Source: a virus. From it: a stretch of DNA of 64,000 bases. Made by a program: the position numbers and the translations under genes. Below the pieces are notes generated by a model. It had not been told where the DNA came from and made no database searches. It saw only the letters and a program-made list of their open reading frames with translations. The stretch lies in the IMG/VR virus record IMGVR_UViG_3300045988_108826. The stretch is one strand, 5' to 3'. Shown one piece after another: positions 4,864 through 57,170 of the stretch; the stretch's first letter is position 1; each line of letters starts with the position of its first letter.

Positions 4864-5715
4864 TTATTGTTTATAAAAATCCTTTGCCTTAAACAAGGCA
4901 TTGTTAATTATATCTCTGTTTGTTAAAGTCTTGTCAAGGTCACGATATGCTTTCATTACATTGTCGCATTTGTTCAGGTCAAGTTTGCCGCATTTTCTTG
5001 AAACCCAATTACTGAAATTCTCTGCCACACGAAGCATATCAAGCATCTTATACTGACGCAAATGTACGGAATCTTTTTTGAATTTCAAACATTCCTGCAC
5101 TCTATTTTCTACGTTTTTAACAGAATACCCTACTATCGTCCGTACTATCTCGGCTAAAGCTATAAAGTATGAATTTTCTGCACCTATACTGTCTAAAGCT
5201 GACTTCATTTCGTTTATGAACGTATCAAGTTTAGGCTGCACGCTTTCATCCATGTATGAGTTATATTCTGCCAAAAAATCCATATTTTCAGGAAGAATAC
5301 CTGATATAAGACTTTCGTACAGTTTTTGTCTTTTCTCCAAAGCACCGAATATCTTCTGTGTTTCCTTGTCCTGATTCTTGATAAAGTCTTTCATCTGTAT
5401 GATACATGCACAAGCTAGGTCGTTTACATACATGATGTTGTAGATAGAAGTAGTGACTACATAGTTTCCGTCTATCGGGCGTACTTTATAAAACTCACAC
5501 TTGCGGAAAGTGTCTACATAGTGGAATTTTACTTCGGGTGTATCTGCTGACTTCGATTTATAGCTGTTGTATTTAAAGCAATTTTCGCAGTTCTTGCACT
5601 GCTCGTATGTTTTACTTGATTTCTTGTAAAACTGTCCGCTACACACGCTTCTGACATCTAAATTAGCTTCTCTGTAAACGGCTTCCTTTGCTTCTCTTTG
5701 TTTTTCGTTGCTCAT
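4864..5715 (-). CDS. Hypothetical protein
   Basis: A 283-aa ORF with N-terminal CKNCENC. Confidence 0.7.
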   Translation of the reverse strand: MSNEKQREAKEAVYREANLDVRSVCSGQFYKKSSKTYEQCKNCENCFKYNSYKSKSADTPEVKFHYVDTFRKCEFYKVRPIDGNYVVTTSIYNIMYVNDLACACIIQMKDFIKNQDKETQKIFGALEKRQKLYESLISGILPENMDFLAEYNSYMDESVQPKLDTFINEMKSALDSIGAENSYFIALAEIVRTIVGYSVKNVENRVQECLKFKKDSVHLRQYKMLDMLRVAENFSNWVSRKCGKLDLNKCDNVMKAYRDLDKTLTNRDIINNALFKAKDFYKQ

Positions 5716-6170
5716 AACTCTTTTATTTCTAAATCAGACTTTGTGATTAATCTTATCCCGTTCTGTAATTCGTGGAGGTATTGGAAGTCGAAACCACCGA
5801 TTGATTCATATCTATCGTTATCTATGTGGCAATACCAATCTCTATAAATAGAATTTGTTTCTCCTTTTCTAACAGCTATAAAACAATTATTCACAAATGT
5901 TTCATAATCATCGGCTGGGATATATGCTTCTTTGCATTCTCTTCTAAAGCCTATTTTCTTTAAGAGTTTATCATTTACCTCTATCGGCATCATATCTTTA
6001 TCTTTGCACTCGAATACATCACCCTCATTGCCTTCAAAATCCAAATAACAATAATCCTCACCAATATTTACAACTCTCATTGGGAATTTACTTCTTTCGC
6101 TTTCGTAAACCCAATTCCCTATCATTAAATCTTTATAGTGTATCATAGCTTTATTATTTATCTTCAACAA
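5712..6170 (-). CDS. Hypothetical protein
   Basis: A 152-aa ORF with a 4-nt overlap to its neighbour. Confidence 0.7.
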   Translation of the reverse strand: MLKINNKAMIHYKDLMIGNWVYESERSKFPMRVVNIGEDYCYLDFEGNEGDVFECKDKDMMPIEVNDKLLKKIGFRRECKEAYIPADDYETFVNNCFIAVRKGETNSIYRDWYCHIDNDRYESIGGFDFQYLHELQNGIRLITKSDLEIKEL

Positions 6171-6921: not shown

Positions 6922-7410
6922 TTATAGATTCTTTCTTCGTGCATATTCAGCTATTAATAAGCCATCTCTATCAGGATGTTTTACTTCTTCAAATTGAGGA
7001 AATAGTCTGTTTCCAATATCCAAAGACGCTTTCTTTAATTCTTCACCACTGCAACCTTTTGGAAGCATTGCTTTCTGCCATTCCTTAGAATCTATGAACA
7101 TGTGCTTTATTCCAAGCATTTCAATGATAACCAATTCAGCTTCAAAACATCTTAATGCACAGAAACTTGAATTTAGCCTCAAATTGTTCACCATTGGACG
7201 CTCCATTACAAGTACAATGTCGTTTTTGTTGTACTCACTGAAAATATCCATAAACTTAGAAGCGTCAAGTCTTGTTATGTTCTTCTTGTTTTTTTGGTAA
7301 TTCTGTTCTTTCTTTACAGGGACTTTAAACGTCTTTGGCTCTATGTTATCTCCGACTATTCCTATTGTTGCAGTAGTCCCGTTGTCTAAACCAACATATA
7401 TTTTACTCAT
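6922..7410 (-). CDS. RuvC-like Holliday junction resolvase
   Basis: MSKIYVGLDNGT (Asp), VMERP (Glu) and DRDGLLIAEYA (Asp) match the RuvC-fold pattern. I use the internal Met as the start. Confidence 0.7.
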   Translation of the reverse strand: MSKIYVGLDNGTTATIGIVGDNIEPKTFKVPVKKEQNYQKNKKNITRLDASKFMDIFSEYNKNDIVLVMERPMVNNLRLNSSFCALRCFEAELVIIEMLGIKHMFIDSKEWQKAMLPKGCSGEELKKASLDIGNRLFPQFEEVKHPDRDGLLIAEYARRKNL

Positions 7411-7795
7411 TCTTATTTTCCTCCTTCCCAACTTTAATATGCAAGAAATCAAGACTTGTCATTTGAGGATATACTCCGTACCACTTTTTCAAGAAAGTCC
7501 AAGCATCAAGGTTATAAAGACACTTTATATCTTCTTCAAGTGATACGATACTTTTACTATCCCATTCGAATACTTTTGCGGTTATATTGTCGGCAAATAA
7601 TAAGTATTTGTCGCCTTTAGACAACACGAATCCGCAGTTGTTCTGTATAGCAAGCAAAGGGACAATTACCTCCTGACTGAATCTGTGTGCTATCTTGTAT
7701 GTATTTTCACTATTATTATCCATAGACATATCTGTTATATCGAAAACTCCCAATCTGTTTAACAATCGGATTGCTTCACCTAGCGTTTGTGCCAT
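7403..7795 (-). CDS. Hypothetical protein
   Basis: A 130-aa ORF. Confidence 0.65.
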   Translation of the reverse strand: MAQTLGEAIRLLNRLGVFDITDMSMDNNSENTYKIAHRFSQEVIVPLLAIQNNCGFVLSKGDKYLLFADNITAKVFEWDSKSIVSLEEDIKCLYNLDAWTFLKKWYGVYPQMTSLDFLHIKVGKEENKNE

Positions 7796-8512
7796 TAGAA
7801 ATCCTCTGAATTAAGTTCAACTTTTACATTTTTATCCGCTATAATCGGTCTTATCCCAACTTCTTCAAATACCATCTTCTGAAATAACTTCTCGTCACTT
7901 TGTCCGTCAGATAAATGCACAAGCATCAAAGTCCTAAGTTCGGGATTCATGTTTCGCTTGATAGCCTCTATTGTCTGATTTATTTCCATGTGAAACTCAT
8001 TGTGAGAACGTATTTCCTGATTCCGACATAGATTGTCTATCATTAAATCCTCGCTGTAATTCCCTTCGATAAGCAAATGATTCAGACCTTTTATCTTATA
8101 AGGAAAGCTGACCGCATCCGTGCAAAAGACTAAACTTCCGAACTCTTTATGAGTAATCAAAAAGGAATAATTCTCACAATTATGATGAACAGGCAAAGCC
8201 ATAACAACAAAAACACCAATCTTGTACTGAACTTTTGGCTTCAATACTTTTACTCCTTGATATTTGTCGGCTACTTCTTGGTTTGAGTAAACTGGTATTT
8301 GTGATTTTAGTGCGTTGGGGATGTATTTGGAATGGTCTTGGTGGCTAACAATGGGTGACTAAACAGCCACCCACATTCTCTATTTTATAGTCCAACATTT
8401 CCAATACCTCATTCCACTTGCAACCTAATTCTAATATAAGACTTTCTTTCTCGGTTTGAAGTAAATAGCAGTTTCCTTTGCTACCACTACCCACTACTTT
8501 TAGGGTTGCCAT
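7795..8512 (-). pseudogene. Metallo-beta-lactamase-fold hydrolase gene broken by a 4-nt insertion in the HxHxDH motif
   Basis: From the ATG at 8512 the frame reads MATLKVVGSGSKGNCYLL...GGCLVTHC and hits TAG at 8345-8347. The +1 frame continues IVSHQDHSKYIP... into the tracked ORF 7795..8244. Removing TGTT restores THSHQDH. Confidence 0.7.
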
Positions 8513-8514
8513 AA

Positions 8515-9351
8515 TCAAAATTCAGGTTCGTTCTTCTTTTCTTCGGATGGCTGAATTACCTCGCCAGTTGATAAGTCAATCGTTTCTCCATTGTTTACTG
8601 ATATTTCTTCGTATTCAGCATCCATAGGTTCTTGAGCCTTTGTTTCTTCTTCACCTTTTACTTCTGAGTTAGTTGCCGCATAAGCCAAATCAGGGGTTGA
8701 GTTGATAATCATGTTGCAACCCGAATTGATTATCGTTTTCATTACCATTTTTTCATCGAATTGTTTTGCGGTAGTCTGTTCTCTGCTTGAAGATTTTGAC
8801 CAAGCGGTCAGAATCATGCGCTTACTCATTATATACAAATCTTGACCACCATCGGCAGTTGGTAGATACATATAAGCTCCAACAAATCCCTTATCCAAGT
8901 TTTCCAAGCATTGTGTATGTTTAACAAGTCTCTTGCAACCGTTTTTAGGGTCTATTTCGTAAATAAACTCATCACCTTCACGTATTACAACTGGGTGTGG
9001 GTCAAAGTTAGGGTAGATACGTTTAACTTGAAGCACTTTGCCAAAGTAAGATTCATGCAAGCATAGTTTATCTCCACGCACAATAAAATAACAAGTCTTG
9101 CGAGAAGCATCTAAACCTTTTACGCTCATCTCAAAGAGTGCAGAAGCAATACTATTCTGTGTACACGCTTCTAATGCAGGTTTGCCATTCTTGTCTTTCA
9201 AATCCTGCAATACAAGCATACTTGCTTTTATAGCGTTTACATATTGATAGTCAGCGGGCATTTTAAATCCTACCTCACACAGACTATTTACTCTTGCAAT
9301 AACACTGTCACCTACATTTGTTTTAACTGTTGCTACTTCTTTTGTTGCCAT
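8515..9351 (-). CDS. recT: RecT-family single-strand annealing protein
   Basis: The size, layout and sequence resemble RecT as I recall it. It lies next to nuclease, SSB and resolvase genes. Confidence 0.65.
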   Translation of the reverse strand: MATKEVATVKTNVGDSVIARVNSLCEVGFKMPADYQYVNAIKASMLVLQDLKDKNGKPALEACTQNSIASALFEMSVKGLDASRKTCYFIVRGDKLCLHESYFGKVLQVKRIYPNFDPHPVVIREGDEFIYEIDPKNGCKRLVKHTQCLENLDKGFVGAYMYLPTADGGQDLYIMSKRMILTAWSKSSSREQTTAKQFDEKMVMKTIINSGCNMIINSTPDLAYAATNSEVKGEEETKAQEPMDAEYEEISVNNGETIDLSTGEVIQPSEEKKNEPEF

Positions 9352-9356
9352 AATAC

Positions 9357-10139
9357 TTAATTATTTAATGATTGTTCTTTAAATTTCCAAATAAATCCTC
9401 CTGCATGATTTCTATCACCACGACAGCAAGCTGTTATCTTGTTGATGTTTGTTACTCTTTGAGCCTCCGATGCAGAATGATATTCTCTAATAAAATTACC
9501 ATTAATATCAAACTGAATAACAGGTTTACATAATCTCGTATGTCTCATTTTGTTAATAAGTTCATCCGATTGTTTGTTCCTTAAAAATCTTTCACGATAA
9601 GATTTATCACTCCAAAGTTTTTTCATTTTGTCAGAGTTCTTTTTTATATTCTCTTCTTTGGAATAATACTCCTTCATTATCTTGCTTATTTTACTTCTAA
9701 ATTCTTTTGTTGTATGAACTTTTCGAGATGATTCCCTTTTGTTTTCGATTGCCAACGGAAATGTATCATTCTCATAATGCGTGCATCTGCGGATATTCTC
9801 GACCCGATTGTCATGCCTAATGCCATTAATATGGTCAATAAAATCCTTTCCATCCTCTTTAGGAAGAAAAGATTCAGCCATAAGTCTATGCACTAAAAAT
9901 CTTTTTAGTTTCTTATCCTTGTGCAGATTTACACAAACGTAGCCACCTTGATTAAGGTTAGTTTTCATAATTTTCTCATGAGATGCGTACTGGTTATGAT
10001 TTCCTCCTTTATTTTTAGGCAAAGATTTCACCCTCCCAAGATTTGATACCATATAACTACCTTCGTAGCCTACTACATCTCTCCATTCCTCGTTAGGAAG
10101 GTTTTCTAAACTTAGATTTTTGTAAATTTCTGTTTCCAT
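9357..10139 (-). CDS. HNH homing endonuclease (NUMOD4 + HNH_3 + IENR1-like)
   Basis: Contains WRDVVGYEGSYMVSNLGRVKSL, IDHINGIRHDNRVENIRRCT, and the C-terminal EAQRVTNINKITACCRGDRNHAGGFIWKF. Confidence 0.85.
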   Translation of the reverse strand: METEIYKNLSLENLPNEEWRDVVGYEGSYMVSNLGRVKSLPKNKGGNHNQYASHEKIMKTNLNQGGYVCVNLHKDKKLKRFLVHRLMAESFLPKEDGKDFIDHINGIRHDNRVENIRRCTHYENDTFPLAIENKRESSRKVHTTKEFRSKISKIMKEYYSKEENIKKNSDKMKKLWSDKSYRERFLRNKQSDELINKMRHTRLCKPVIQFDINGNFIREYHSASEAQRVTNINKITACCRGDRNHAGGFIWKFKEQSLNN

Positions 10140-12167: not shown

Positions 12168-12557
12168 TCAAAAAGGAAGTTCGCTTGATATTCCATTGTC
12201 TTGTGCTACTGCTTCACTCGCTTTAGGCACATCACCACTACTTTGTGCAGCTACTTGCGTCTGACCTCCTCCCGAACGCTTGAATACAGACCAAGCACGG
12301 ATAGTATTGTACCAACGTCCTTTAAACTCACGAGCATCGAAGTTATACATAATATCCACCTCGTCATTCATCTGAATGTTGAATTGTTGGATTTTCTCCG
12401 TACCGAAAACTTCAAAGCATACTTTCTGAGGATATGAATCATGTGTTTCAAGCACATATTCCTGAGAAGCCCAAGTGCCTTTCTGTGAAGTTCCCGTTTT
12501 CATTTGCATTACTGCGATGATTCTACCGCTAATTTTCTGTTTGTTTTCTTCTGCCAT
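12168..12557 (-). CDS. DUF3127-type OB-fold ssDNA-binding-like protein
   Basis: Contains ISGRIIAV...QEYVLET...YPQKVCFEVFG...GRWYNTIRAW, with a C-terminal SSELPF tip like an SSB tail. Confidence 0.65.
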   Translation of the reverse strand: MAEENKQKISGRIIAVMQMKTGTSQKGTWASQEYVLETHDSYPQKVCFEVFGTEKIQQFNIQMNDEVDIMYNFDAREFKGRWYNTIRAWSVFKRSGGGQTQVAAQSSGDVPKASEAVAQDNGISSELPF

Positions 12558-15301: not shown

Positions 15302-16414
15302 TTAATTTTTAAGTTTTCTGTTTAATATTTTATCTATTTCATCTATCTGGTCGTACTTAATTTCTATCAGTTTTATTTTATGTTCTTTACAATATTGACG
15401 CAGCCTTTTGTCTCTATCTACTTGAATAGCAAAATCATCTTCAGTACGATGAAAGAAAGGTATTTTTTTATAGTGTTGCACTCCGTTAAATTCTATAATA
15501 ACATTTAGTCGTGGCAAATAAAAATCAGCCTTAATATTATTCCTCGAAAACATTTGTGGGTCAATATTTATGCTATATTGTCTTATATATTCTATTCCCT
15601 TTAAAGTAAGAAAATATTCTATTTTATTCTCTCCCAATGATGTCTTACATTTCGGACACCCCTGTCCATTCAGATGATTATTTGGTGACTGCCAAAACTC
15701 GTCATGCTCAGGACACACTATGCATACTTTCTTTTTTGCACTTATATATTCCACTCTGGTGTAATCATATTTGCATCCGTGTATTAATTTTGACATTTCA
15801 ATAAAATATTCTGTATTTTTAGTTTGTTTTTCTGCCATTGATTTAAATCCGCAAATAGGACAACCTTTCCCTTGTAAGTGATTGTCAGGAGTTTGCCAAA
15901 ATTCGCCATGTATTGGACATAAAATACAAACTTTTGTATTCATGTCTTTGTACTTCACTTTATCATAGATATATTTATCACCATGAACTTTAACTGCTCG
16001 TGCTATGAAAATTTCAGTGGTTATCTTAATTTTACCCTTACAGGCAGGACATTCTTGACCACTTAAATGGTTGCTTGGTGCTTGCCAGAACTCTCCGTGT
16101 ATCGGGCATATTATACAAACTTTAGTTTTATTATCCTTATAATCAACTTTACTATAATCGTATTTCCCATTGTGGATTTTTCTTGCACATTCTATAAATG
16201 ATGTTGTATCTTTTTTTATTTTTCCACCACAATGTGGACATCCACTCCCTCTTAAATGATTAATAGGAGTCTGCCAAAAACTACCATGTTCTTTACATAT
16301 AATTTCAACCTTTGTCGTGCATTTTTCATACACAACTTTAGTATAATCATACCTATCCCCGTGAACTTCTTTTGCTCTCGCAATAAATTCTTCTGTTGTT
16401 AATCTTTTACTCAT
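15302..16414 (-). CDS. Free-standing homing-endonuclease-like protein: 4 Zn-ribbon repeats plus a Vsr/DUF559-like PD-(D/E)xK domain
   Basis: The repeat HGxKYDYxKVxYxxxxxKVxIxCxxHGxFWQxPxxHLxGxGCPxC occurs four times. It is followed by ADFYLPRLNVIIEFNGVQHY. Confidence 0.75.
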   Translation of the reverse strand: MSKRLTTEEFIARAKEVHGDRYDYTKVVYEKCTTKVEIICKEHGSFWQTPINHLRGSGCPHCGGKIKKDTTSFIECARKIHNGKYDYSKVDYKDNKTKVCIICPIHGEFWQAPSNHLSGQECPACKGKIKITTEIFIARAVKVHGDKYIYDKVKYKDMNTKVCILCPIHGEFWQTPDNHLQGKGCPICGFKSMAEKQTKNTEYFIEMSKLIHGCKYDYTRVEYISAKKKVCIVCPEHDEFWQSPNNHLNGQGCPKCKTSLGENKIEYFLTLKGIEYIRQYSINIDPQMFSRNNIKADFYLPRLNVIIEFNGVQHYKKIPFFHRTEDDFAIQVDRDKRLRQYCKEHKIKLIEIKYDQIDEIDKILNRKLKN

Positions 16415-16551: not shown

Positions 16552-18495
16552 TTATTTTATATCTACAACAAAATCTTCATCTGTCACAATCATTTTTATT
16601 AACTGATTATTTATTGAAGGTATATTGCTTTCATTGATAAGTTCGCTGTCGTCAATAAACAAAGGTAGATTGATATCATAGAACTTCTGCAATGCTAAAG
16701 CTAAGTCAATACCAATCAACACCTTACTTGCATGGTTTGTAACACTTGCACTTACGCCCATATTGTCTGTGACCTTACAAGTATCAATGACATTTCCCGA
16801 TTTATTTGTTTCAGTCATTTCTACGTGTAGATAATCAAACTTACTATTTACTCTATAAGAAATAATCGAAGCCTTTTCACGCTCATATCTTTCAACCGCA
16901 TTTAGCTTTCCTTCAAGTAAGGCTAATTCAGAAGCACTATCTCTAAGAGATGATTGAAATTCTTTAATCTTATCTATCTGTTTGTCATATTCATCTTTTA
17001 ATCCAAGTTTTTTTGAATTGGCTTCAATATCATTCAAAAGCTCCCTTTTCATATTTTGCAATGCGCTTGTATCTTCACTTGGAATATCCGTTAAATTTGC
17101 CTCATGGTATGCTATAATTCCCAGTTTTTCTTTTCCTTCCTTAGTATCACGATATTTCACAAAATTATTTCGCAAATTATCCAACTCTAAAACAAGCAGT
17201 TCCTTACTCTGCAAAGGTTTTTCTTCATACCCTTTATCTATGATAGCTTGCAATTCTTCTATCTCGGACTTTACTTGCACGATTTTTTCGTTGTTTGATT
17301 TACCTGTTGCCACTATTGATTTGTGTTTTGCTTCGCGCTGTTCAAAGAATCTCTGTTTTGCTTCTTCAAGTTTTTCTCCTTGTAACGGTTGCCCGCAATA
17401 GCTGCAAACTTCACCCTCAAACTGCATTGACTTGACATTTTCGTTTTCTTTGAGAAGAACTTTCCTACATTCCTCGTAAGCTCTCAGTCTTTCTTTCGCT
17501 AATTTTATCTCTTTTTCAGCGTCTTCTAAAACTTGTTTATTTTTTCTATTATCACGTTCTATCTGTGCATTATTACTATCCACATCAGCTATCTGTGTTT
17601 TTATTTTATTGGCTTCGTATATTGGCTTTGTATTGTATTTGTTTTCAGCTTCCGCGTATTCTTGTTTCAACTTGTTTATCTCAGCCAATTCAGCATCTCT
17701 TTTTTTAATATATACTTTTGCTTGCTCGTTACTTCCCAATATTAATTTATCTATACTCTCAATTTGTTTCTTTGCATCTTCTATTTCCTCTCTAATTACA
17801 TCAAGCCCGCTTATGTCAGGTAACGATGATTGAAGAGCATTAATAGTAATTGGTAAACTTTCAATATTCTGTTTAATAGGTTTCATTTGACCTTTAATAC
17901 TTTCCTTGATTTTTTCGGGAGGATATTTATCAAGTTCGTTTTTAATGATTGAATAGTCTCCTTCAAAATCATCATCTTTAATTTCTCCTACTAAATGTTC
18001 AAAAATACCTCTAAGGTATCTCCAATCCATACCTAAGAAATAATTAATATTTAGCATTAATTTTAATTTAGGGAAAGGCGCAAATGTTTCTTCTATAAAC
18101 GATTTATAATCTCCTGCACTTCTCTCAATGCAGTCTATATAAAACTTGTAATCGTCAGTAGCTTTCTTTTCGTATTCCTCACGACCTTTCTTTCTCGTCC
18201 AACCTTGCTTTGCGGTCTTTTTCAGCGTGTATTCTACTCCGTCAATATCCAACACGGCTTCGGCAGATGCAAGTTTTGAGTTTTCGTAAGTAAGCGGCAA
18301 GGTATCATCGAACAATTTGTAGTTGATTCTGTCTTGTTCGTCTGCACCAGTAAGCAACCAAAGCCACGCATTGAAGCAGCTTGACTTACCTGATTTGTTT
18401 CTTCCTTTGATTTCTGTATTGTGACCGAAGTTTATAACTTTGTTCTGTCCTCGCCAATCCTGCAAGGTGAGTTTTTTAAGAGTTATTGTTTTCAT
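16552..18495 (-). CDS. SbcC/Rad50-like (T4 gp46-like) recombination ATPase
   Basis: Has an N-terminal Walker A (GRNKSGKSS), a long coiled coil with a central CSYC zinc-hook-like CxxC, and a C-terminal LPLFIDDSE. Confidence 0.8.
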   Translation of the reverse strand: MKTITLKKLTLQDWRGQNKVINFGHNTEIKGRNKSGKSSCFNAWLWLLTGADEQDRINYKLFDDTLPLTYENSKLASAEAVLDIDGVEYTLKKTAKQGWTRKKGREEYEKKATDDYKFYIDCIERSAGDYKSFIEETFAPFPKLKLMLNINYFLGMDWRYLRGIFEHLVGEIKDDDFEGDYSIIKNELDKYPPEKIKESIKGQMKPIKQNIESLPITINALQSSLPDISGLDVIREEIEDAKKQIESIDKLILGSNEQAKVYIKKRDAELAEINKLKQEYAEAENKYNTKPIYEANKIKTQIADVDSNNAQIERDNRKNKQVLEDAEKEIKLAKERLRAYEECRKVLLKENENVKSMQFEGEVCSYCGQPLQGEKLEEAKQRFFEQREAKHKSIVATGKSNNEKIVQVKSEIEELQAIIDKGYEEKPLQSKELLVLELDNLRNNFVKYRDTKEGKEKLGIIAYHEANLTDIPSEDTSALQNMKRELLNDIEANSKKLGLKDEYDKQIDKIKEFQSSLRDSASELALLEGKLNAVERYEREKASIISYRVNSKFDYLHVEMTETNKSGNVIDTCKVTDNMGVSASVTNHASKVLIGIDLALALQKFYDINLPLFIDDSELINESNIPSINNQLIKMIVTDEDFVVDIK

Positions 18496-18497
18496 AA

Positions 18498-19463
18498 TTA
18501 TTTCATTTCACTGATTAATGCATTTCCACAAGTAATTCTATCACTATCTTCTTCTTTTGAAGGAACAAATACGATGACATCCCATCCTTCTTCTAGCAGC
18601 GGCTGTTCGAATTTGCGGTACACATCATAATCAGCATATCCAGTTACTTCAAAACCATTTTCAATAGCTGAATTTGTTTCATGAATTGGGGTAATTTTTA
18701 CAATAAACTTATTCTTGTCAAATAACTCAGAGAGTTTCTTTGCATCAAGAATAGTCTGTGCAGTTACAGGAAAATTCAAAGTATATTTTCTACCTTTGGG
18801 CATTGGTAAATCTTCAGCTAATTCTGATATTTCAGTTAAAGATAAACTTTTTCTATCAAATAACTGATTTCTTTGTTCGTCATCAGTTGAATTGATAGAG
18901 AACTGAAGTCCTGCTTCACCATTGTAAAAATCATTTTTTATTTCGCACCAAGTAAGAATATACTGTTTCAATTTCTTATTTGCTTTTGGTAGCATAGTAG
19001 ATACTACTGGATGAACAGTCTTTGCTTTTAATCCACAAGTCTTTACAAGTTCTTTCAGCATCATAGAAAAAGCCAGCACATTTTCATTCCAAGTTGGTTC
19101 TCCCATTCTTGCAAAGTGAACATTAAATCGTTCAGTTTCTCTTACATCTTCATTTTTGATAATCATTTTAATTTGATAAGCAAGTTCATTTACTGAAACA
19201 TTACCAAAGAAGCCAAATTTAGGAACATCACAGAATTTACATTTCATCGGGCAACCTTTCTGTGTAGAGATAGTAGCAACCCATTTATTACGCAAATCTA
19301 CTTCTGTGTTAGCTACTCCGTTGATTTCTTTTGTCAGACCGAGAAAGTCAGCCTTGATGTTATTTTCTTTTCCGTAATCACCTACTGTAAGAAATTCAAG
19401 TTTCTTTTCGGTATCTACATAAATCTTTCCTGTGTGAGTTTTAATTGTTTTCATATTATACAT
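18498..19463 (-). CDS. Radical SAM enzyme, RlmN/Cfr-like core
   Basis: Contains CPMKCKFC (CxxxCxxC), then RMGEP, VVSTM, LQFSINS, IVKITPIHE and a C-terminal DRITCGNAL, in the same order as RlmN/Cfr motifs as I recall them. Confidence 0.7.
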   Translation of the reverse strand: MYNMKTIKTHTGKIYVDTEKKLEFLTVGDYGKENNIKADFLGLTKEINGVANTEVDLRNKWVATISTQKGCPMKCKFCDVPKFGFFGNVSVNELAYQIKMIIKNEDVRETERFNVHFARMGEPTWNENVLAFSMMLKELVKTCGLKAKTVHPVVSTMLPKANKKLKQYILTWCEIKNDFYNGEAGLQFSINSTDDEQRNQLFDRKSLSLTEISELAEDLPMPKGRKYTLNFPVTAQTILDAKKLSELFDKNKFIVKITPIHETNSAIENGFEVTGYADYDVYRKFEQPLLEEGWDVIVFVPSKEEDSDRITCGNALISEMK

Positions 19464-19482: not shown

Positions 19483-19689
19483 TTATTCTTCTGTCTTTAT
19501 GATTATCTGATTTGCATATCTCGGATTTACGATTAAATTTCCAATGCTTGAAGTAATCTCAATTTCTCCAAACGGATTTACGTTAATTACGTATTTGTTG
19601 TCTTTCCCATCGTAAATTTCAAGACCGTAGTCTATTTCTTTTACTTCTGTATCGTCTTTAAAATCTCTTTCCTTGTATTTCATATTCAT
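19483..19689 (-). CDS. Small hypothetical protein
   Basis: A 68-aa ORF with a 4-nt overlap to the HTH gene. Confidence 0.6.
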   Translation of the reverse strand: MNMKYKERDFKDDTEVKEIDYGLEIYDGKDNKYVINVNPFGEIEITSSIGNLIVNPRYANQIIIKTEE

Positions 19690-19892
19690 ACCAATTTAAT
19701 ATTTACTCGTTTAACTTCAAGTGCTTTCAAAATTCTATCCAAAGAATCAATGGTAGTATTTCTACCTGCTTCGATATTTCGGAACTGATTTAATGTGATA
19801 CCTGCTCTTTTTGCAAGTTCACTTTTGCTTAATTTCTTCTTTGTTCGTTCTTCGTTTATCAGATTTACTAAAAATTCTTTCATATAATTCAC
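19686..19892 (-). CDS. XRE/Cro-type HTH regulator
   Basis: LSKSELAKRAGITLNQFRNIEAGRNTTIDSL. Confidence 0.8.
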   Translation of the reverse strand: MNYMKEFLVNLINEERTKKKLSKSELAKRAGITLNQFRNIEAGRNTTIDSLDRILKALEVKRVNIKLV

Positions 19893-23711: not shown

Positions 23712-24461
23712 TTAAAGTTCATAAATATTTCTTAAACTATTATACATAGCACGTGCTCTCTTTTTATCAAAAGGTAGTCCGCTTGAAGTAACTTTGCCAC
23801 GTTTATTCAGTTCGTCTGCAATAGGTTGGAAGTTCGTATTTGCGGTTATCTTTCCGTGAATCATTTGATAGTCCGTTATAAACTCCCAAAAAGCCTTATT
23901 TGCCGGATTCATACGAGCTTTTTCTCGTCTAATCTGTGCTGATGCTTGGGAAGCTTCACTAATTGCCTTAGTTCGGTCTGTATTTCCTTTTTTGCTCCCC
24001 CAAAGGTTATTTGTACCGCCTATCTCTTTATGGTTTGCTTTTCTTGCATCCAAACCCGCTTTAGTTCGTTGCCTGATGTTATTCAATTCAATTTCAGCAG
24101 CAAGCGACAAGGCAAACAATAACGCTTTCCCTCCGATAGATTTATTCTCTATAATTGTACCGTCTTTAGCCTGAACGATAGTTATTTCTCTTTCGCTTGC
24201 CTCTGTAATAATCTGAAATAGGTCAGACATATTTCTCCCCAAACGTGATAATTCACTGATATAAATTGTACTACCTTTGTCACATTGCTTTAATAGTTCA
24301 TTCAGCTTTCTTTCTGTATGCTTTACAGACCCGCTAACCTTTTCAACAACTTGCAATAGTTCGGCTGTTTCATTTATACGGCTTAAATAGTCCGTGATAC
24401 ATTGCATTTGCTGGGTGAAGTCTTGTGCTTCTGAACTTACACGAAGATATAGATATTTCAT
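23712..24461 (-). CDS. Small serine recombinase (resolvase/invertase family)
   Basis: Contains MKYLYLRVSSEAQD (catalytic Ser), ISELSRLGRN and IRQRTKAGL. Confidence 0.85.
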   Translation of the reverse strand: MKYLYLRVSSEAQDFTQQMQCITDYLSRINETAELLQVVEKVSGSVKHTERKLNELLKQCDKGSTIYISELSRLGRNMSDLFQIITEASEREITIVQAKDGTIIENKSIGGKALLFALSLAAEIELNNIRQRTKAGLDARKANHKEIGGTNNLWGSKKGNTDRTKAISEASQASAQIRREKARMNPANKAFWEFITDYQMIHGKITANTNFQPIADELNKRGKVTSSGLPFDKKRARAMYNSLRNIYEL

Positions 24462-31774: not shown

Positions 31775-32878
31775 ATGAATATCAGAGTTAATAAGTCGGA
31801 ATTTGTAAAAGGTCTTTTAGTAGGAGGCTCTTTTGCTGGCAGAACAAAGTTTTTGCCTATTTTAGATTGTGTAAAGATTAAGGTTAAGAACGGAAGCATG
31901 GTTATTGTTTCTTCTGACAATGAAAATGCTATCAGCAAGCGTATATTCGGTGTAGAATCGGACGGTGAGGTTTCATTCTGTGCAGGTTATAAAAGCCTTC
32001 TGTCTTACGTGAAGCTTATAAAGAGTGAATTTATAGACTTGGTGGTTGACGATGAGGTCAAGAATTTGGAGGTCAAGCATGATAAGGGAAGTGTAAGTTT
32101 GCCTCTTTCTGATGCTTCTGAATTTCCTTCGATGCAGCCTGATGAAAATGCGGTATGTATCAGCATGGATAGTGCTTTGCTGAACAACTGGATTGTAGAC
32201 GGTCAGGTATTTGTTGGCAATGATGAGTTACATCCAGTAATGGGGGCTATCTATTTCTATTGCGACAAGGGAGAATTGGGAGTATGTTCTTCTGACGGTC
32301 ACTACATGTTTACGGATTTTGTAAGTTCGGAACTTGAAGATTTCAACTTTATGCTTAACAAGGGAGCATTTAAAGCCGTATGTGACGTATGTAAGGACTC
32401 TGATATTGTGAAAGTAAGTATTGGTACTAAGAACATCAAGTTTTCTTCGGACGATTGTTCTGTTTTGGTGAGAACCATTGAATCAAAATATCCAAATTTC
32501 AAGTCCGTTTTCCCGAAAAACAATCCTATAAACGCAAAATTGTTGAAAAAAGACCTTGTTGATGCAATTAACAGATGCAAACTTGGTGCAAGTCAGACTA
32601 CTTGTCTTGTCAAACTGAATATTTCAGGCATGAACTTGGAAGTCAGTGCGCAGGATTTGGATTTCAACATCAAATCTGTTGAAAATATGCTTGTTGAGGC
32701 TAACGGAAGCATTGTTATCGGCTTCCATGCAGAGAAATTGCTTGCAGTATTGGGTTGTATAGGCACGGAATACGTAAATATTGAGCTTTCCGAATCTTCA
32801 AGGGCGGGATTGTTCAAGGAAGATGATGAAAACAGTCATAAACTGTTGCTTCTGATGCCTATGCTTCTGAACGATTAA
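31775..32878 (+). CDS. dnaN: DNA polymerase III beta sliding clamp
   Basis: At 367 aa it has the right size, and the N-terminus (MNIRVNKSEFVKGLLVGGSFAGRTKFLPILDCVKIKVKNGSMVIVSSDNENAI) follows the clamp pattern. Confidence 0.8.
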   Translation: MNIRVNKSEFVKGLLVGGSFAGRTKFLPILDCVKIKVKNGSMVIVSSDNENAISKRIFGVESDGEVSFCAGYKSLLSYVKLIKSEFIDLVVDDEVKNLEVKHDKGSVSLPLSDASEFPSMQPDENAVCISMDSALLNNWIVDGQVFVGNDELHPVMGAIYFYCDKGELGVCSSDGHYMFTDFVSSELEDFNFMLNKGAFKAVCDVCKDSDIVKVSIGTKNIKFSSDDCSVLVRTIESKYPNFKSVFPKNNPINAKLLKKDLVDAINRCKLGASQTTCLVKLNISGMNLEVSAQDLDFNIKSVENMLVEANGSIVIGFHAEKLLAVLGCIGTEYVNIELSESSRAGLFKEDDENSHKLLLLMPMLLND

Positions 32879-38400: not shown

Positions 38401-40518
38401 ATGGATTTAGATGAGATAAGAAAATGGCATAGATTATTCAAACCAAACAATGAGTTGTTTGAGATACGAATACTTTCAAAGCCTACTATAAGCGGATATT
38501 TTTATGATATTGAGGAAGCTATTAAAACACTTCCTCAGTATGACAAATACCAAATTTACTTTACGGTTAATCAAGTAAAAGATGCTTGTTCAAGTAGAGT
38601 GCAATTTAATAGATTTCAACAAGTACAAGGTAGTGCTACTTCGGGAAACGATATTTCTCATAGATGGTGGCTACCGATAGATATTGATGTTGAAAGACCG
38701 ACAGACGTAAGTTCCTCCGATGAAGAGAAACAATATGCTCATAAAAAAGCTGGTGAAGTATATAAATTCCTACAAAAAGCAGGATTCCCAACACCCATAG
38801 TATGTGATTCATCTTCGGGGTATCATATATACTATCCACTTGATGCTGACAACACACAAGAAGTAAAGGCTGTTATAGAAAAGTTTTATGCAGTATTGGG
38901 AGATTATTTTACAGATGAAAGGGTAAAGATTGATAAGGTTGTAGGTGATGCTAATAGAATTATGCGTCTGTATGGTACTTTTGGTAGAAAGGGTAGGAAC
39001 TCAGAAGAAAGACCACACAGAATGTCTAAAATTTTATCTTTCCCCGATTCCTTTGATAGAATGGGTATTGAAAAGGTTTCTGAATTTAACTCTAAATATG
39101 AGATAAGGCATGAAAGGCAGTATAAATTTAAGAAAACATATAACAATAATGCGAATGAACAATTTGATTTAAGAAAGTTTATCCAAGAACATAATATAGA
39201 AATTGCTAAAGAGTTACCTTATGGCAATGGTGGTACAAAGTTTATTCTTAAAGAGTGCCCTTTTGATTCTTCTCATAAAGCCCCAGATAGTGCTTTATTT
39301 CTCAGCTCTGACGGAGCGATAGGTTTTAAGTGCCTCCACAATAGCTGTTCCTCTTATGATTGGAAGGCTTTTAGACTGCATTATGACCCGCACGCATACG
39401 ATTATGAGAATAGACCACCACAACAATATATGCAGCCGCAAGGCAGGTATATGCAGCCTCAAAAGAAAAAATATGAAATAAAAGAGGAAAGCCCTGAATT
39501 GGGTAAGAAGTGGTTTAGCATGTCTGATATTAAGAAGGTGGATTTATCAAGTCTTATGCACATAAAGACAGGATATACTGAACTTGATAAGAAGATTGTA
39601 GGTCTTTATGAGGGAGAAATAACAATTATATCGGGCAGTAACTCTTCGGGGAAATCTTCATGGATAAACAATCTTATCTTGAATGTTATACAGCAGAATT
39701 TCAAGGTAGCTTTATGGAGTGGTGAGTTAAGACCTGATGTATTAAAGACTTGGATTTCTTTAAGCGCAGCAGGGAATAAATATATTCAACCGAGTAAAAA
39801 AGATGAGGGTAAATATTATGTTCCTGAATATGTTTCTCAAAAGATAGACTATTGGATGGATGGAAAGTTTTTTCTTTACAATAATGAATACACGAATAAA
39901 TGGGAACAGATATTTAATGATATGAAGGAGCTTGTCAAGTTAGGGGTCAAGTTGTTTATTCTTGATAACTTATTTTCTTTGGATATTGATATATTTGAGG
40001 GGGATAAGAATAACAAGCAGAAAGAATTAATTCTCCAACTTTGTGACTTTGTAAAAAAGAATAAAATCCACATCATGCTTGTCGCTCACCCAAGAAAGGT
40101 TACTACTTTTTTGAGAAAAACAGATATTAGTGGAAGTTCCGATTTAACCAATGCCGCTTCCAATGTGTTTATCGTACACAGAGTAAATAACGACTTTTTA
40201 AAGACAGGTGGAGAGTTCTTGGGTAATACGGTTGTCCAGCAATATTCAATGTTTGGCAACTGCATAGAAATTTGCAAAAACAGATTGTACGGAGTTGTGG
40301 ATTGTCTTGTTGGAATGTACTATGAAATACCTACAAGAAGATTTAAAAATACAGAAAGTGAGGATATTCACTACGGTTGGGAAGAAGAGCCAGTCCAGCA
40401 TTCACTGACCTACGAGCAGCCGCAGTCTGACTTAGAGAAATTCCAACAACAGTTTGACAATGCAAGTAGTAATTTACCTTTTGGTTATACGATAGAAAAA
40501 GGAGAAATACCATTTTAG
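38401..40518 (+). CDS. Bifunctional primase-polymerase (AEP) / DnaB-RecA-like helicase
   Basis: Contains LPIDIDVERP (DxD), SSSGYHIYYPL, a central Cys/His cluster, Walker A GSNSSGKSS and Walker B LFILDN. Confidence 0.8.
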   Translation: MDLDEIRKWHRLFKPNNELFEIRILSKPTISGYFYDIEEAIKTLPQYDKYQIYFTVNQVKDACSSRVQFNRFQQVQGSATSGNDISHRWWLPIDIDVERPTDVSSSDEEKQYAHKKAGEVYKFLQKAGFPTPIVCDSSSGYHIYYPLDADNTQEVKAVIEKFYAVLGDYFTDERVKIDKVVGDANRIMRLYGTFGRKGRNSEERPHRMSKILSFPDSFDRMGIEKVSEFNSKYEIRHERQYKFKKTYNNNANEQFDLRKFIQEHNIEIAKELPYGNGGTKFILKECPFDSSHKAPDSALFLSSDGAIGFKCLHNSCSSYDWKAFRLHYDPHAYDYENRPPQQYMQPQGRYMQPQKKKYEIKEESPELGKKWFSMSDIKKVDLSSLMHIKTGYTELDKKIVGLYEGEITIISGSNSSGKSSWINNLILNVIQQNFKVALWSGELRPDVLKTWISLSAAGNKYIQPSKKDEGKYYVPEYVSQKIDYWMDGKFFLYNNEYTNKWEQIFNDMKELVKLGVKLFILDNLFSLDIDIFEGDKNNKQKELILQLCDFVKKNKIHIMLVAHPRKVTTFLRKTDISGSSDLTNAASNVFIVHRVNNDFLKTGGEFLGNTVVQQYSMFGNCIEICKNRLYGVVDCLVGMYYEIPTRRFKNTESEDIHYGWEEEPVQHSLTYEQPQSDLEKFQQQFDNASSNLPFGYTIEKGEIPF

Positions 40519-45095: not shown

Positions 45096-45169
45096 GGGCA
45101 AAATGGGTGAGTGATTTAGCCAACACTCTGCAAAAGTGTTTTACAGCGGTTTGAATCCGCTTTTGCCCT
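45096..45169 (+). tRNA. tRNA-Cys: tRNA-Cys (anticodon GCA), 74 nt, with some non-canonical positions
   Basis: Acceptor stem GGGCAAA/TTTGCCC; anticodon arm ACACT-CTGCAAA-AGTGT; T arm AGCGG-TTTGAAT-CCGCT; discriminator U73. Against it, position 8 is A and the D-stem has one mismatch. A19/U56 may covary. Confidence 0.65.
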
Positions 45170-47607: not shown

Positions 47608-50600
47608 TTAAAATGTTCCAAGTTTGGGTGATTCGTAATAAACAGCTATAAATACTTTTGCATCCATAAGAGACCAGTTGTTATAGTTACTTGTCGTACT
47701 ATATTCAAAGTATGTACTATAAATGTTTTCAATTATTGCAACAGTTAATTTTCCATTAGATAAAGCTGTTATCTGAACATGATAAAGTGTATTCCCTATA
47801 TTATGTTTAACCCTATAGCGTCCTGTTGCATATTTTGATACAGAAAATGTAATAGGATTTCCTGAGCTGTTTGGAATATTAGTTCCCATTTTATCAATGA
47901 CACTTCCGGAACTTGATATATAAGCAGAATATATACATTTAACATAATGAACTGGAAGTCCTAATTCGTCTTTATTTTTACTGTATGTTAGAGTAATGCC
48001 AGTTTTATGGATGTGAATACCTGTCTGAGATTCATCCAATATTTTAAGTTCTCCAAATGAAAGTCTTGTTTCACTTCTAAGTATTTCTGCACCAGAACCA
48101 TCATAGGTATACAGTTCTATTCCTGACGGAGTTATTCCTATTGCTTCACTTCTTCTATCATTTTTTTTATCATAACTATACATATTAATAACTCCATAGT
48201 TAACAGGACCGAAGTTACCAAAGTATATATTTAAAAGTGAATTATTGCTTTTGGATATATTCATACCGTCTTTATCTACTAAAGTACTTATACCATCGGC
48301 ATTTGTTGCATTAAGTGTTTTTACTACAAGAGCATCCGCTTCAATCAGACTTGTACGAATATGCCCTCCCTCAATGATTGTATTTCCGGCTGTTGCTGCT
48401 GAAACCATATCAGCATAGCTGGCATATCCTAACTTTTTAGCCATATCCTCTTTAGAGGAGTTTATGTCAGAAGTGACATCGCCTGAGTCAGCTTTATTAT
48501 TGATTGTGCTCTGCAAACTACTATTAAGAGAACTGAATGTAATCTTTCCTTGTAAAGATACATCTTTTCCGAAAATACTTATGGCGTTCTCTTTAACGGT
48601 AATTCCTGTCTTAATTTGTTCTGTTGTGGAATAATCGCTAGGTGCAGCACTCCACGGTGTTGACCTTTCTCCTTTTTCGACTTTGAGATTCCAAACACGG
48701 AAGTAACCTATTGGTTTATTGTCTTGTAACACAGAAGAAATGTAATAAAAAACCATTTCAATATTAGAATCTTTGATATTTGTATCACTACCACCTAAAG
48801 TTAAGGGAGGAGTAATAATTTTACCTGTACCATTAGATTTTAAATTAGGAATACTATAAGCAGTCCAACCAAATTTATCGTCAAACTGAACCCTAAAATA
48901 TGAGTTCTCCGTTGCGTTCCAAATAAGATTTCTTGCTTCGTATTCAAATGAAATGGTTACTATATCTCCTTTTTTTAAACCTGACGTTTTGTATAATGTA
49001 TTTCTTTGATTTGCTACATTATTAAAAGTAGTCAATCTTTTTTCGTTGCTTGTCAATAAAGCATAGTTTTGATTAACAGATTCATCTACTTTGTAGGCAT
49101 AAACTTTTGTAAAGTAAGCTTCGCCTAAATTAGATGTCCCTTTAATACTGAAACATATACTTGCAGAAATAGAATCTGTTGGTATTGTTATATATCCTGA
49201 CAAGGTATTCCATCCTTTTGTTTTGGATTCTATTGCATCAAGCTCTATGTATTTGTATGTTTCATTTTTCAGTTTTATTCTAAGACCTACTGTTACTTTA
49301 TAATTACACTTCTCCGCATTAACTAAGGCAGTTACATAATATTTTTCTCCTACATTAACATTAACGTATGACTTAGCATAAATCGTACCAACTGTACTTT
49401 TCATACAATAACTTGTAGGACAACTATTGTTGGCAGTTGCCGCGCTAACTCGTGAACCTCCGGTATAAAGCAAGCTATAATTAGCATCATCGAAGCAACT
49501 GTCAGGAACAATGTTGGTTATCTTGCTCACACTTGTAACCTTAGAAGAAATACCAATCCAAATGTTATCAGGTTGTAACGCGACTTCTGCTTTGCTTACA
49601 CGTGTAGTCAGCGCTGACAAATTGTTATTAGTCTGATTCAGGTTGTTCTGAACGGTAGTTACTTCTGTCTTTTCGGCTTTTAGCAATAATTTTTCTGAGT
49701 GCTGTTCTATGACTGTCTGCATAGATTTTACAGTCGTAATCGTTGCGTACTTCTTGTCTGCATTTTGTCCGGCTGTTGTTATAGCATCATTCTTAGCCTT
49801 ATTTGCCTTGTTGGTAGCATCTGTAGCAGCAGTAGATATAGCGTCCTGCTTTGCCTTATTTGCCTTGGAAGTTGCGTCAGCAGAGGCAGTACTTATTGCT
49901 GAAGTCTTTGCATCATTCGCCTTTTTGGTTGCATCGCTCGCAGCAGTATTAATTATTTCCTGCTTAATAGTAGTAATTTCAGTAGAAGAAACCTTACTAT
50001 TAATTTCACCTTCTAATACACTGAATTGTGATGTTACCTCTTTTTTATATTCAGTCAAAGCGTTTTCCGAATCTTCGGGAGCAGGTGACCAATCAGTTGC
50101 TTTATTGCCTATTTCTCCCTTTAAAAGACAGATGTATATCTTCTTATTTAAAGAACTATCTGATATAGTAAAAAAAATCAAACAACCTTCTCTATTTGTT
50201 GTTTTATCAATAGGAAATGTATATTGATACTTTACCCAATTATCTGATAACTCACTTATCCTCAAAGTCTTTGATGATATATTTCCATTATATTTATTTT
50301 GAATTTGTATTGACATTGGGGTTTTTATATTCTCTTGGCATTTAGCATAAAATGAAATTGTGACATTTTTGTTTTCTAACTCCGCATAAGGTATATTAGA
50401 GTAAGAAGTTGATGCCATTTTTATATCTCCAGTTCCTGCCTGAGTTTTCAAGGAAACAGTAACTTCATCTAACGGTATTCCTCCTACATTTTCAGATACT
50501 TGTTCTTTTGAAACAGAATATTTTCCTGTACCCCAATTATTAGCATACCAGTCACCACCATATTTAGTATTTCTAAATAAATTTCTACCTCCAATCTGAA

Positions 50601-56135: not shown

Positions 56136-57170
56136 ATGTCTAAAAAATCAACAACAGAAGAATTTATCGAAAAAGCAAGAGCTGTACACGGTGACAAGTA
56201 CGATTACAGCAAAGTTGAATATAAAGGAAACAAAATTAAGGTATGTATAATTTGTCCTATACATGGAGAATTTTGGCAGAGACCAAATGACCATTTAAGT
56301 GGTTATGGATGTAAACTTTGTGCTAACTTTGAGAATGGGGAAAGGTGTAAGAGTAATATTGATGAATTTATTAAAAAAGCCGAACAAATTCATACGGGTA
56401 AATATGATTATTCCAAAGTTGAGTATATAAATAATCATACGAAAGTATGTATTATATGCCCGATTCACGGAGAGTTCTGGCAAATTCCAAATTCACACTT
56501 ATTAGGTCACGGATGCCCATATTGCGCTAACTGTAAAAAGATAGATGAGAATGCGTTTTTAGAAAGGGCTAAAGCTGTTCATGGCGCGAAATACGATTAT
56601 TCTCAGGTTGAATTTGTCGACAGTAAAACGTATGTTAATATAATTTGTTCAAAACATGGTAGTTTTTGGCAAACACCTGAAAGTCATTTAAGAGGAGCAG
56701 GATGTCCTCGTTGTTCTTCTTCTAGGGGAGAGAAGGAGATAGAACGTTTTCTAAATATTTTGGGCGTTAACTTTCAACCTCAATACCAAATAAATCTTGA
56801 ACAAAAAATGTTTTCAAGAAACAACATAAGGGTTGATTTTTATCTACCAAAGTATAGCACTATAATAGAGTTCAATGGGAAGCAGCATTATGAGTATAAT
56901 TCATTTTTCTATAAAAATAGAGATGACTTTGATATACAAGTTGAACGAGATAAAAGATTAAAAGAGTATTGCAAGAACAACAAGATAAATCTTATTATAA
57001 TTAAATATAAAGATATAGATAAAATAGAAAAAATACTTGAAAAAAACATAATTAAGTTAATAAAAGCTAAATGTTTGGATGCTTTTGTTGAAGTTGCCAA
57101 AGATTATGTACCTTTACAACACTATGATAGTTTTATAAAAGATATTAATTTAAAGTTTAAAGACCTATGA
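56136..57170 (+). CDS. Homing-endonuclease-like protein: 3 Zn-ribbon repeats plus a Vsr/DUF559-like nuclease domain (paralog of 15302..16414)
   Basis: It has the same repeat unit as its paralog, followed by VDFYLPKYSTIIEFNGKQHY. Confidence 0.75.
   Translation: MSKKSTTEEFIEKARAVHGDKYDYSKVEYKGNKIKVCIICPIHGEFWQRPNDHLSGYGCKLCANFENGERCKSNIDEFIKKAEQIHTGKYDYSKVEYINNHTKVCIICPIHGEFWQIPNSHLLGHGCPYCANCKKIDENAFLERAKAVHGAKYDYSQVEFVDSKTYVNIICSKHGSFWQTPESHLRGAGCPRCSSSRGEKEIERFLNILGVNFQPQYQINLEQKMFSRNNIRVDFYLPKYSTIIEFNGKQHYEYNSFFYKNRDDFDIQVERDKRLKEYCKNNKINLIIIKYKDIDKIEKILEKNIIKLIKAKCLDAFVEVAKDYVPLQHYDSFIKDINLKFKDL

Follow-up and report, generated by a model that had tools for sequence, protein, structure and literature searches.

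Juxtaposition of an RlmN/Cfr-clade radical SAM gene and an SbcC-like ATPase gene in a viral contig, probably by an indel

The DNA analyzed (the window; IMG/VR record IMGVR_UViG_3300045988_108826) was 64 kb (64,000 nucleotides) out of an 81.9-kb viral contig, IMGVR_UViG_3300045988_110372, and two adjoining genes in a long minus-strand early operon of this A+T-rich phage genome are considered here. An open reading frame (ORF) at 18498-19463 (-) encodes a 321-aa radical S-adenosylmethionine (SAM) protein, and the next, at 16552-18495 (-), encodes a 647-aa Rad50/SbcC/LmuB-like coiled-coil ATPase. A first-pass annotation had placed the radical SAM gene in the position of the SbcD/Mre11 partner expected beside such an ATPase. 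The ORF listing confirmed both lengths and the spacing of 2 nt between the genes, and all motifs listed in that annotation were located.

The ATPase was matched over its full length by phrog_77 ('SbcC-like', E = 2e-33). A motif search placed the Walker A motif GRNKSGKS at aa 31-38 (18382-18405, -), the CSYC hook at aa 364-367 (17395-17406, -) and the Walker B motif LFIDD at aa 612-616 (16648-16662, -), in agreement with the SbcC/Rad50-like reading given earlier. The radical SAM protein belongs to phrog_24834 (E = 2e-109), a PHROG without assigned function. Its CxxxCxxC motif, the [4Fe-4S]/SAM site, is CPMKCKFC at aa 71-78 (19230-19253, -), with C71, C75 and C78, and the further motifs are RMGEP (119-123), VVSTM (153-157), LQFSINS (186-192), KITPIHE (256-262) and TCGN (311-314; 18522-18533, -).

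The nearest relatives (P0001, with 93% identity in the radical SAM protein) lie on 80-84-kb contigs that are syntenic with the window. In three of these loci (L008-L010), a 197-aa gene of the PF03358 FMN_red family stands between the radical SAM gene and a 648-aa ATPase gene; this flavoprotein gene overlaps the radical SAM stop codon and is translationally coupled. By blastn, window positions 19700-18508 corresponded to L008 5758-6956 and window positions 18498-16973 to L008 7552-9077, and L008 6957-7551, the FMN_red gene, had no counterpart in the window. At the junction (18496-18507, -) the window thus lacks precisely this gene, a clean gap of 595 bp, and the juxtaposition of the radical SAM and ATPase genes reflects the lack of the FMN_red gene lying between them in the nearest relatives. 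A near-identical DNA match to the window was not found among GenBank phages. The ATPase is mosaic with respect to its L008 homolog (7555-9501), the first ~140 residues being near-identical and the rest diverged, so that identity is 63% overall, next to the 93% of the adjacent radical SAM protein; the CxxC is also kept in the L008 homolog.

To assess conservation of the adjacency, 172 other radical SAM loci were surveyed, comprising 92 from GenBank, Logan/ENA and GTDB genomes and 80 from IMG/VR, the latter being the best 80 of >522 relatives. Genome contigs were scanned for radical SAM homologs with an alignment (A2) made in addition to the main family alignment (A1), which was too diverse for the scan. 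An ATPase homolog was present within 5 kb of the radical SAM gene in 4/172 of these loci. Among the 92 these were L008-L010 and L047 only, and among the best 80 IMG/VR relatives such a homolog was seen only on the window's own contig. In Bacteroides phage Versailles, which carries the closest radical SAM protein among GenBank phage records (54.5% identity), the radical SAM gene and the SbcC-like gene are 7.7 kb apart. Since relatives do not keep the two genes side by side, a functional pairing of the radical SAM protein with the ATPase is not supported, and the placement of the former in an SbcD position, linked to the ATPase, was not upheld.

A different ATPase adjoins the radical SAM gene in phages of about 45 kb (L004-L007 and L102-L107), where a 452-aa AAA_15/AAA_23 protein of the ATP-binding cassette (ABC)/structural maintenance of chromosomes (SMC) type is encoded immediately upstream. 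Homology of this protein to the 647-aa ATPase was not detected and was rejected, the P-loop being all that the two have in common. Gene calling at these same loci gave a 436-aa radical SAM protein, in which about 110 aa are added at the N-terminus without a match in Pfam. L004-L006 also carry, downstream and after a gene for a single-strand DNA-binding protein (SSB), another radical SAM gene of 277 aa that is unrelated to the first.

Full-length homologs of the 647-aa ATPase were present in 119 GenBank phage records. Four of these loci were examined (Listeria phage B054 gp49-51, Aeribacillus phage AP45 gp13-15, Porphyromonas phage005b and Bacteroides phage Versailles), and in 4/4 the ATPase homolog is followed by a RecT/Bet annealase and then by a metal-dependent hydrolase of the metallo-beta-lactamase (MBL) fold. 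SbcD was next to the ATPase homolog in 0/4, and a conserved upstream gene was likewise not seen in any of the four. The conserved partners of this ATPase family are the downstream RecT/Bet annealase and MBL-fold hydrolase, not SbcD, and since the homologs carry these two and never SbcD, the SbcD/Mre11 partner anticipated in the first-pass annotation is not to be expected. Its observation that the window has no Mre11-like gene stood: neither Metallophos nor SbcD was matched among the scanned ORFs, with PHROGs applied to 30 minus-strand ORFs at 3.6-26.3 kb and Pfam to the remaining ORFs of >=250 aa, smaller plus-strand ORFs being only partly scanned.

The counterparts of both conserved partners are encoded in the window, in the same strand block as the ATPase, 7-10 kb downstream and not contiguous with it: a RecT-like ssDNA annealing protein at 8515-9351 (-) (phrog_148, E = 2e-35) and an MBL-fold metal-dependent hydrolase at 7795-8503 (-) (phrog_392, E = 3e-30; Lactamase_B_2). 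RecT is likely the working partner of the ATPase, and the MBL hydrolase is likely the nuclease of the module. The MBL frame is broken near 8347; tblastn with the Versailles and AP45 MBL proteins gave two window frames, covering aa 3-54 and aa 54-240; a frameshift, a pseudogene and an assembly error are all possible causes of the break. The interval of about 7 kb between the ATPase and RecT genes holds two homing/HNH endonucleases, an SSB gene (12168-12557, -; phrog_4932, E = 9e-18), several ORFs without a PHROG match and two further ORFs that match unnamed PHROGs. One of the endonucleases, a homing endonuclease of 370 aa that contains four zinc-ribbon repeats (15302-16414, -; phrog_559, E = 3e-79; phrog_681, E = 7e-65), lies directly downstream of the ATPase gene and is absent at that position in L008-L010. 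The ATPase would then be the first gene of a conserved ATPase-RecT-MBL recombination module, the members of which may have been separated in the window by homing endonucleases and other inserts.

With this context, a takeover of the SbcD/Mre11 role by the radical SAM protein, which would couple nucleic-acid modification to DNA-end processing or counter-defence, is judged very improbable. The same-strand spacing of 2 nt, the SbcC-like character of the ATPase, the lack of SbcD among the scanned window ORFs and the other ABC-type ATPase that adjoins the gene in a second phage lineage would all agree with it, but the FMN_red gene between the pair in the nearest relatives and its clean indel in the window, the distance in Versailles, the rarity of an ATPase within 5 kb at other loci, and the pairing of ATPase homologs with RecT and MBL rather than with any conserved upstream partner argue against it.

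The ATPase was also matched over its full length by the PADLOC LmuB model PDLC03859 (E = 7e-17). Effectors of Lamassu systems are encoded upstream of LmuB, and a phage-borne defence or anti-defence pair could accordingly be imagined, in which an LmuB-type SMC ATPase works with the radical SAM protein as the upstream, LmuA-type effector. This arrangement is the least probable of those considered, as the LmuB match is weaker than that to phrog_77 and stands in a RecT/MBL context, the radical SAM protein has no PADLOC match, and the radical SAM gene travels without the ATPase. Lamassu and other defence systems were rejected on the weak LmuB match for the ATPase and the absence of any match for the radical SAM protein in PADLOC.

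The locus is best explained, with good though incomplete confidence, as two unrelated modules juxtaposed by an indel: a stand-alone, mobile RlmN-like radical SAM gene and the ATPase of an ATPase-RecT-MBL module. Some observations weigh against this explanation. The window's MBL gene is frameshifted and neither RecT nor MBL is adjacent to the ATPase, and the ATPase neighbour in the phages of about 45 kb leaves some room for a loose association of the radical SAM gene with recombination-module ATPases.

For the radical SAM protein, a profile was built from alignment A1 (37 diverse family members), which is also the source of the residue counts given below. Searched against the PDB, the profile matched 6fz6 (E = 8e-21), 5hr6 and 3rf9 (both about 2e-19) and Cfr 9p0p (4e-19); RlmN/Cfr were the sole strong matches, over the whole core (profile positions 14-307), and the next match was at 1e-3. 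The AlphaFold model (predicted local distance difference test, pLDDT, 92.6; predicted template modelling score, pTM, 0.91) was compared with the PDB by Foldseek, and the ten best matches were RlmN, with template modelling (TM) scores of 0.53-0.66, followed by Cfr. The best viral matches were a COG0820 phage protein (top) and a radical SAM protein of Pseudomonas phage 201phi2-1. On these profile and model comparisons the 321-aa protein is assigned to the RlmN/Cfr clade, with a likeness far beyond chance; this is the affinity recognized in the first-pass annotation. The matches to curated models were much lower. The Pfam Radical_SAM match of the protein alone was sub-threshold, NCBIfam TIGR00048 gave a partial match of 43.1 bits (cut-off 290), and the NCBIfam Cfr models gave 28-32 bits (cut-offs 468-550).

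Residues of the active site were then compared. Of the cluster cysteines, C71 and C78 are invariant in A1 and C75 is Cys in 36/37. The Cys of the TCGN motif, C312, aligns with the RlmN CGQ and is the equivalent of the methyl-carrier Cys C355; the column is Cys in 33/37 members and the next position is Gly in 35/37, so that the C-terminal mechanistic Cys reported from the first reading is present. In the HMMER alignment to 3rf9, the RlmN resolving Cys C118 aligns with T64 (19272-19274, -), which is not Cys. Across the family this column is I/T/N/M/A/V and never a conserved Cys, and besides the cluster cysteines and C312 the family has no other conserved Cys. The first-pass annotation was right that the second mechanistic Cys is missing, but the residue in its place is T64 and not the neighbouring A63 that had been named. 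The N-terminal RNA-binding extension is missing as well, as noted there: in the profile alignment homology starts near RlmN residue 89, and the AlphaFold model shows residues 1-58 folded into a small beta-rich unit where RlmN has its N-domain. The protein is related to RlmN/Cfr but without two of the features that define them, namely the resolving Cys and the N-terminal domain.

The radical SAM gene has recurrent partners of another kind. An FMN_red gene overlaps its 3' end in L008-L010, L055-L056, L108, L114, L127 and 6 further viral loci, and this overlap recurs in three lineages. The two genes diverge together, FMN_red identity being 62% where that of the radical SAM protein is 87%, and 45% where it is 65%. 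In a bacterial branch of about 30% identity, a TrxR-like Pyr_redox_2 gene lies upstream and overlaps the radical SAM gene (L095 and L096), and in P0258 the Pyr_redox_2 and radical SAM domains are fused. MetK is encoded near the radical SAM gene in two phage groups. Fusions to MtnN carry a nucleosidase domain that scored 224 bits against a cut-off of 169, identifying it as a bona fide methylthioadenosine/S-adenosylhomocysteine (MTA/SAH) nucleosidase. The PNP_UDP_1 domain had been considered as a clue to the substrate, and was dropped as an ordinary MTA/SAH nucleosidase; such an activity fits by-product removal for any SAM-consuming radical enzyme, and is therefore uninformative on substrate. 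Judged by gene content, the reductase and SAM-chemistry neighbours point to a radical SAM enzyme that would be active and have an electron supply of its own. As part of the indel explanation, a flavoprotein is probably the actual partner of the radical SAM protein, namely FMN_red in phages and TrxR-like Pyr_redox_2 in the bacterial branch.

RlmN and Cfr use C355 as the carrier of the methyl group and C118 to resolve the covalent intermediate between enzyme and substrate, and C118 mutants of RlmN stay cross-linked to RNA as covalent adducts (cf. the titles of PDB 5hr6 and 5hr7). In the phage protein, a [4Fe-4S] cluster on C71/C75/C78 would reductively cleave SAM, with C312 as the putative methyl/methylene carrier or hydrogen-atom donor, and with electrons presumably delivered by a flavoprotein, in phage relatives the FMN_red encoded across the 3' end of the radical SAM gene. 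Lacking the resolving Cys and the RNA-binding N-domain, the enzyme would be unable to turn over exactly like RlmN/Cfr. Three solutions with one Cys can be envisaged: an external thiol or a partner may carry out the resolution, the substrate may be one whose adduct resolves otherwise, or C312 may donate a hydrogen atom in a reaction other than methylation. If the cycle were reductive overall, the presence of a reductase alongside the gene would be accounted for. The window appears to have lost this partner gene, and its radical SAM protein presumably relies on host flavodoxin.

The family is large, with >7,000 protein clusters and >500 viral contigs, and is spread through gut and rumen samples. 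Radical SAM proteins of 70-93% identity occurred in no fewer than 11 unrelated phage settings and in metagenome-assembled genomes (MAGs) of many phyla; the best 80 IMG/VR loci alone fall into at least 11 unrelated contexts, in which the neighbours include C5 DNA methylase, GroEL, MetK, RNA ligase with RlaP, and runs of tiny ORFs (contigs of 105-280 kb). The family is an abundant, mobile and uncharacterised variant of a known enzyme class. At loci L013-L092, proteins of 44-84% identity were encoded on contigs from human, rodent, ruminant and horse guts that had been binned to Clostridia, Bacilli, Alphaproteobacteria, Bacteroidales, Akkermansia and Treponema, and also to Elusimicrobia, Saccharibacteria, Patescibacteria and Methanobrevibacter. 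Either the gene has been transferred horizontally over an unusually wide range of taxa, or phage contigs have been wrongly binned into MAGs.

Distant RlmN-like phage proteins with both cysteines (VICCSTQ / GGCGQLW) were seen in Stenotrophomonas phage BUCTxx99 (L098, 3378-4337) and Salmonella phage Arash (L099, 3393-4322). The BUCTxx99 gene lies inside a phage tRNA gene array and is annotated as 'prohibitin family protein', an apparent mis-annotation. Other homologs stop before the C-terminal CGQ, with a small ORF next to them (L002, 5938-6813; L003, 5953-6741; L100, 3339-4184); these come from Ounavirinae (Pectobacterium phage Arno18), a crAss-like Kehishuvirus and Vibrio phage D479, and their genes may be split or truncated. 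In the Kehishuvirus the homolog sits two genes after an SPFH/band-7 gene.

Clues to the substrate were sought in fusions and operons. In several chromosomal bacterial fusions, a QueT-like S-component of an energy-coupling factor (ECF) transporter is joined to the radical SAM domain and the MtnN nucleosidase, which argues for an imported small molecule. The fused S-component was also searched for clues to its specificity, with no match by phmmer in the PDB and only 2 matches in a homolog search. Two further proteins are fusions with an isochorismatase-type amidohydrolase. In 8/80 genome loci (L024, L025, L029, L031, L033, L037, L045 and L065, with the radical SAM gene at about 5001-5975 in each), genes for proteins 68-73% identical to that of the window stand inside chromosomal nicotinamide adenine dinucleotide (NAD)-salvage operons flanked by housekeeping genes. 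The arrangements were pncB-pncA-rSAM-nadE-HD-nrtR, pncB-nadE-rSAM-nadD-like-x-nrtR and pncB-Nudix-rSAM-nadE-nadD-like, where rSAM is the radical SAM gene and x an unnamed gene. Between the two main operon types, identity was 33% for PncB and 26% for NadE, and 72-76% for the radical SAM protein. That PncB and NadE are diverged but the radical SAM proteins are similar points to entry of the mobile gene into NAD operons at least 2 times, independently and recently.

A small N-heterocyclic or nucleotide-type metabolite linked to NAD salvage is tentatively preferred as the substrate, and is ranked first at somewhat less than even odds. In a more specific and more speculative form of this proposal, phrog_24834 would be an unrecognised flavoprotein-dependent enzyme of NAD metabolism, acting on a pyridine- or adenine-containing precursor or derivative; it would have been recruited repeatedly into NrtR-regulated pncB/pncA/nadE operons, and would be carried by hundreds of gut and rumen phages to sustain NAD or an NAD-dependent process in infection. 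If this is true, the phage enzyme would keep NAD, or NAD-dependent RNA repair, going, for example against NAD-depleting defences. Several observations count against a substrate of this kind. The operon cases are only 8/80 genome loci, the window itself has no NAD genes (NAD, MetK, RNA ligase and RlaP genes were looked for in the window and none was found), and an RNA target is favoured by four viral loci with RNA ligase/RlaP genes together with the action of RlmN/Cfr on RNA. In these loci, RNA ligase and RlaP flank the radical SAM gene in L153-L155, and RNA ligase is near it in L158. A literature search on phage RlmN-like enzymes and on links of radical SAM proteins with RlaP found nothing relevant.

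Second in rank, as the chief alternative and regarded as possible rather than probable, is an RNA adenine, of tRNA or rRNA. The protein would then act as an RNA adenine C-methyltransferase, a pared-down RlmN/Cfr with tRNA A37 or 23S A2503 as its target, by which phages would tune translation or protect or repair tRNA against host anticodon nucleases, an idea held at the same low level. RlmN and Cfr are its sole strong homologs with known function, distant two-Cys phage homologs occur in tRNA gene arrays (e.g. in phage BUCTxx99), the JGI auto-annotation names the protein RlmN, and the four RNA ligase/RlaP loci would fit. The loss of the resolving Cys and N-terminal domain speaks against it, since RlmN C118 mutants are trapped on RNA, as do scores far under the curated RlmN/Cfr cut-offs (43 bits versus 290), and the membrane S-component fusions and insertions into NAD operons are hard to reconcile with RNA.

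The same S-component fusions bear on a further candidate, a non-orthologous analogue of the queuine lyase QueL that would salvage preQ1 from queuine/queuosine in the gut. The order of QueT-like S-component, radical SAM domain and nucleosidase mirrors the C. difficile operon queK-qrtT-queL (PMC11477304, PMC11130926), a missing QueL replacement in streptococci has been discussed (PMC12632869), and the family is spread in gut and rumen samples. This role is nevertheless considered unlikely. Solved QueL (6p78) was a remote superfamily match (Foldseek rank 19, E = 6e-4, TM 0.39) and was absent from the phmmer and profile matches to the PDB, a preQ1 riboswitch was not found upstream of the S-component fusion genes, and neither TGT nor DpdA was found among the scanned window ORFs. 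The nucleosidase domain is of the ordinary MTA/SAH kind, and the NAD-operon context would be left unexplained. Identity of the protein with QueL was rejected on the remote fold match, the absence of a sequence or profile match and the absence of a preQ1 riboswitch.

Other features of the window were recorded. Upstream of the radical SAM gene, in the same strand block, a helix-turn-helix (HTH) transcriptional regulator is encoded at 19686-19892 (-) (phrog_3 and phrog_8, E about 2e-8), and this gene order is also found in L008-L010. A Holliday junction resolvase lies further down the operon of the ATPase, at 6922-7452 (-) (phrog_1770, E = 5e-8). A DUF723/DUF4379 zinc-finger protein related to the 370-aa homing endonuclease is encoded at 56136-57170 (+). 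The phage also encodes a serine recombinase/invertase (23712-24461, -), a DNA polymerase III beta sliding clamp (31775-32878, +) and a 705-aa DnaB-like helicase protein (38401-40518, +). One tRNA gene (45097-45168, +) was the sole Rfam match above gathering score, and a 2,633-aa ORF at 47608-55509 (-) had no significant Pfam domain, with a marginal alanine-zipper match only.

A radical SAM protein in place of Mre11 would have meant a new kind of DNA-end machine, and this idea can be dropped as an accident of gene loss. What remains of value is an abundant, highly conserved and mobile phage gene of the RlmN/Cfr clade that lacks the product-release residue, comes with its own reductase in relatives and has entered NAD-salvage operons of bacteria by independent insertions. 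The public labels '23S rRNA methyltransferase' and, in some phages, 'prohibitin' are probably wrong for it. Were the substrate identified, a well-studied class of enzymes would gain a new reaction, and gut phages a new auxiliary function.

Compared with known systems, the radical SAM protein resembles RlmN/Cfr (COG0820) in a core that is homologous over its whole length (profile E about 1e-20, Foldseek TM up to 0.66), and in the CxxxCxxC and RMGEP motifs and the Cys of a C-terminal CG[QN], aligned to C355. Unlike RlmN/Cfr, it has neither a Cys at C118 nor the helix-hairpin-helix (HhH)-type N-terminal domain, in place of which there is a beta-rich N-terminus of 58 aa; it scores far under the curated cut-offs, and its family has flavoprotein partners, fusions with ECF S-component, MtnN and isochorismatase, and places in NAD-salvage operons. 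QueL (6p78) likewise belongs to the radical SAM enzymes, is linked with an S-component of the QueT/QrtT type and with a nucleosidase, and occurs commonly in gut organisms, but it is a 230-aa protein of another radical SAM subgroup. With SbcCD, Mre11-Rad50 and T4 gp46-gp47 the ATPase shares its Walker A and B motifs, long coiled coil and central CxxC hook, but its 647 aa make it shorter than SbcC (about 1,050 aa), and an SbcD/Mre11 phosphoesterase is not adjacent to it, here or in the relatives examined. Similarity to Lamassu LmuB likewise extends over the full length, whereas the context is one of recombination, with no LmuA- or LmuC-like partner present. In the ATPase-RecT/Bet-MBL module of phages such as B054, AP45 and Versailles, the ATPase is a full-length homolog of 25-28% identity; the RecT-like and MBL genes of the window lie on the same strand and in the same early operon, although, unlike in those phages, the three genes are not contiguous and the MBL frame is broken.

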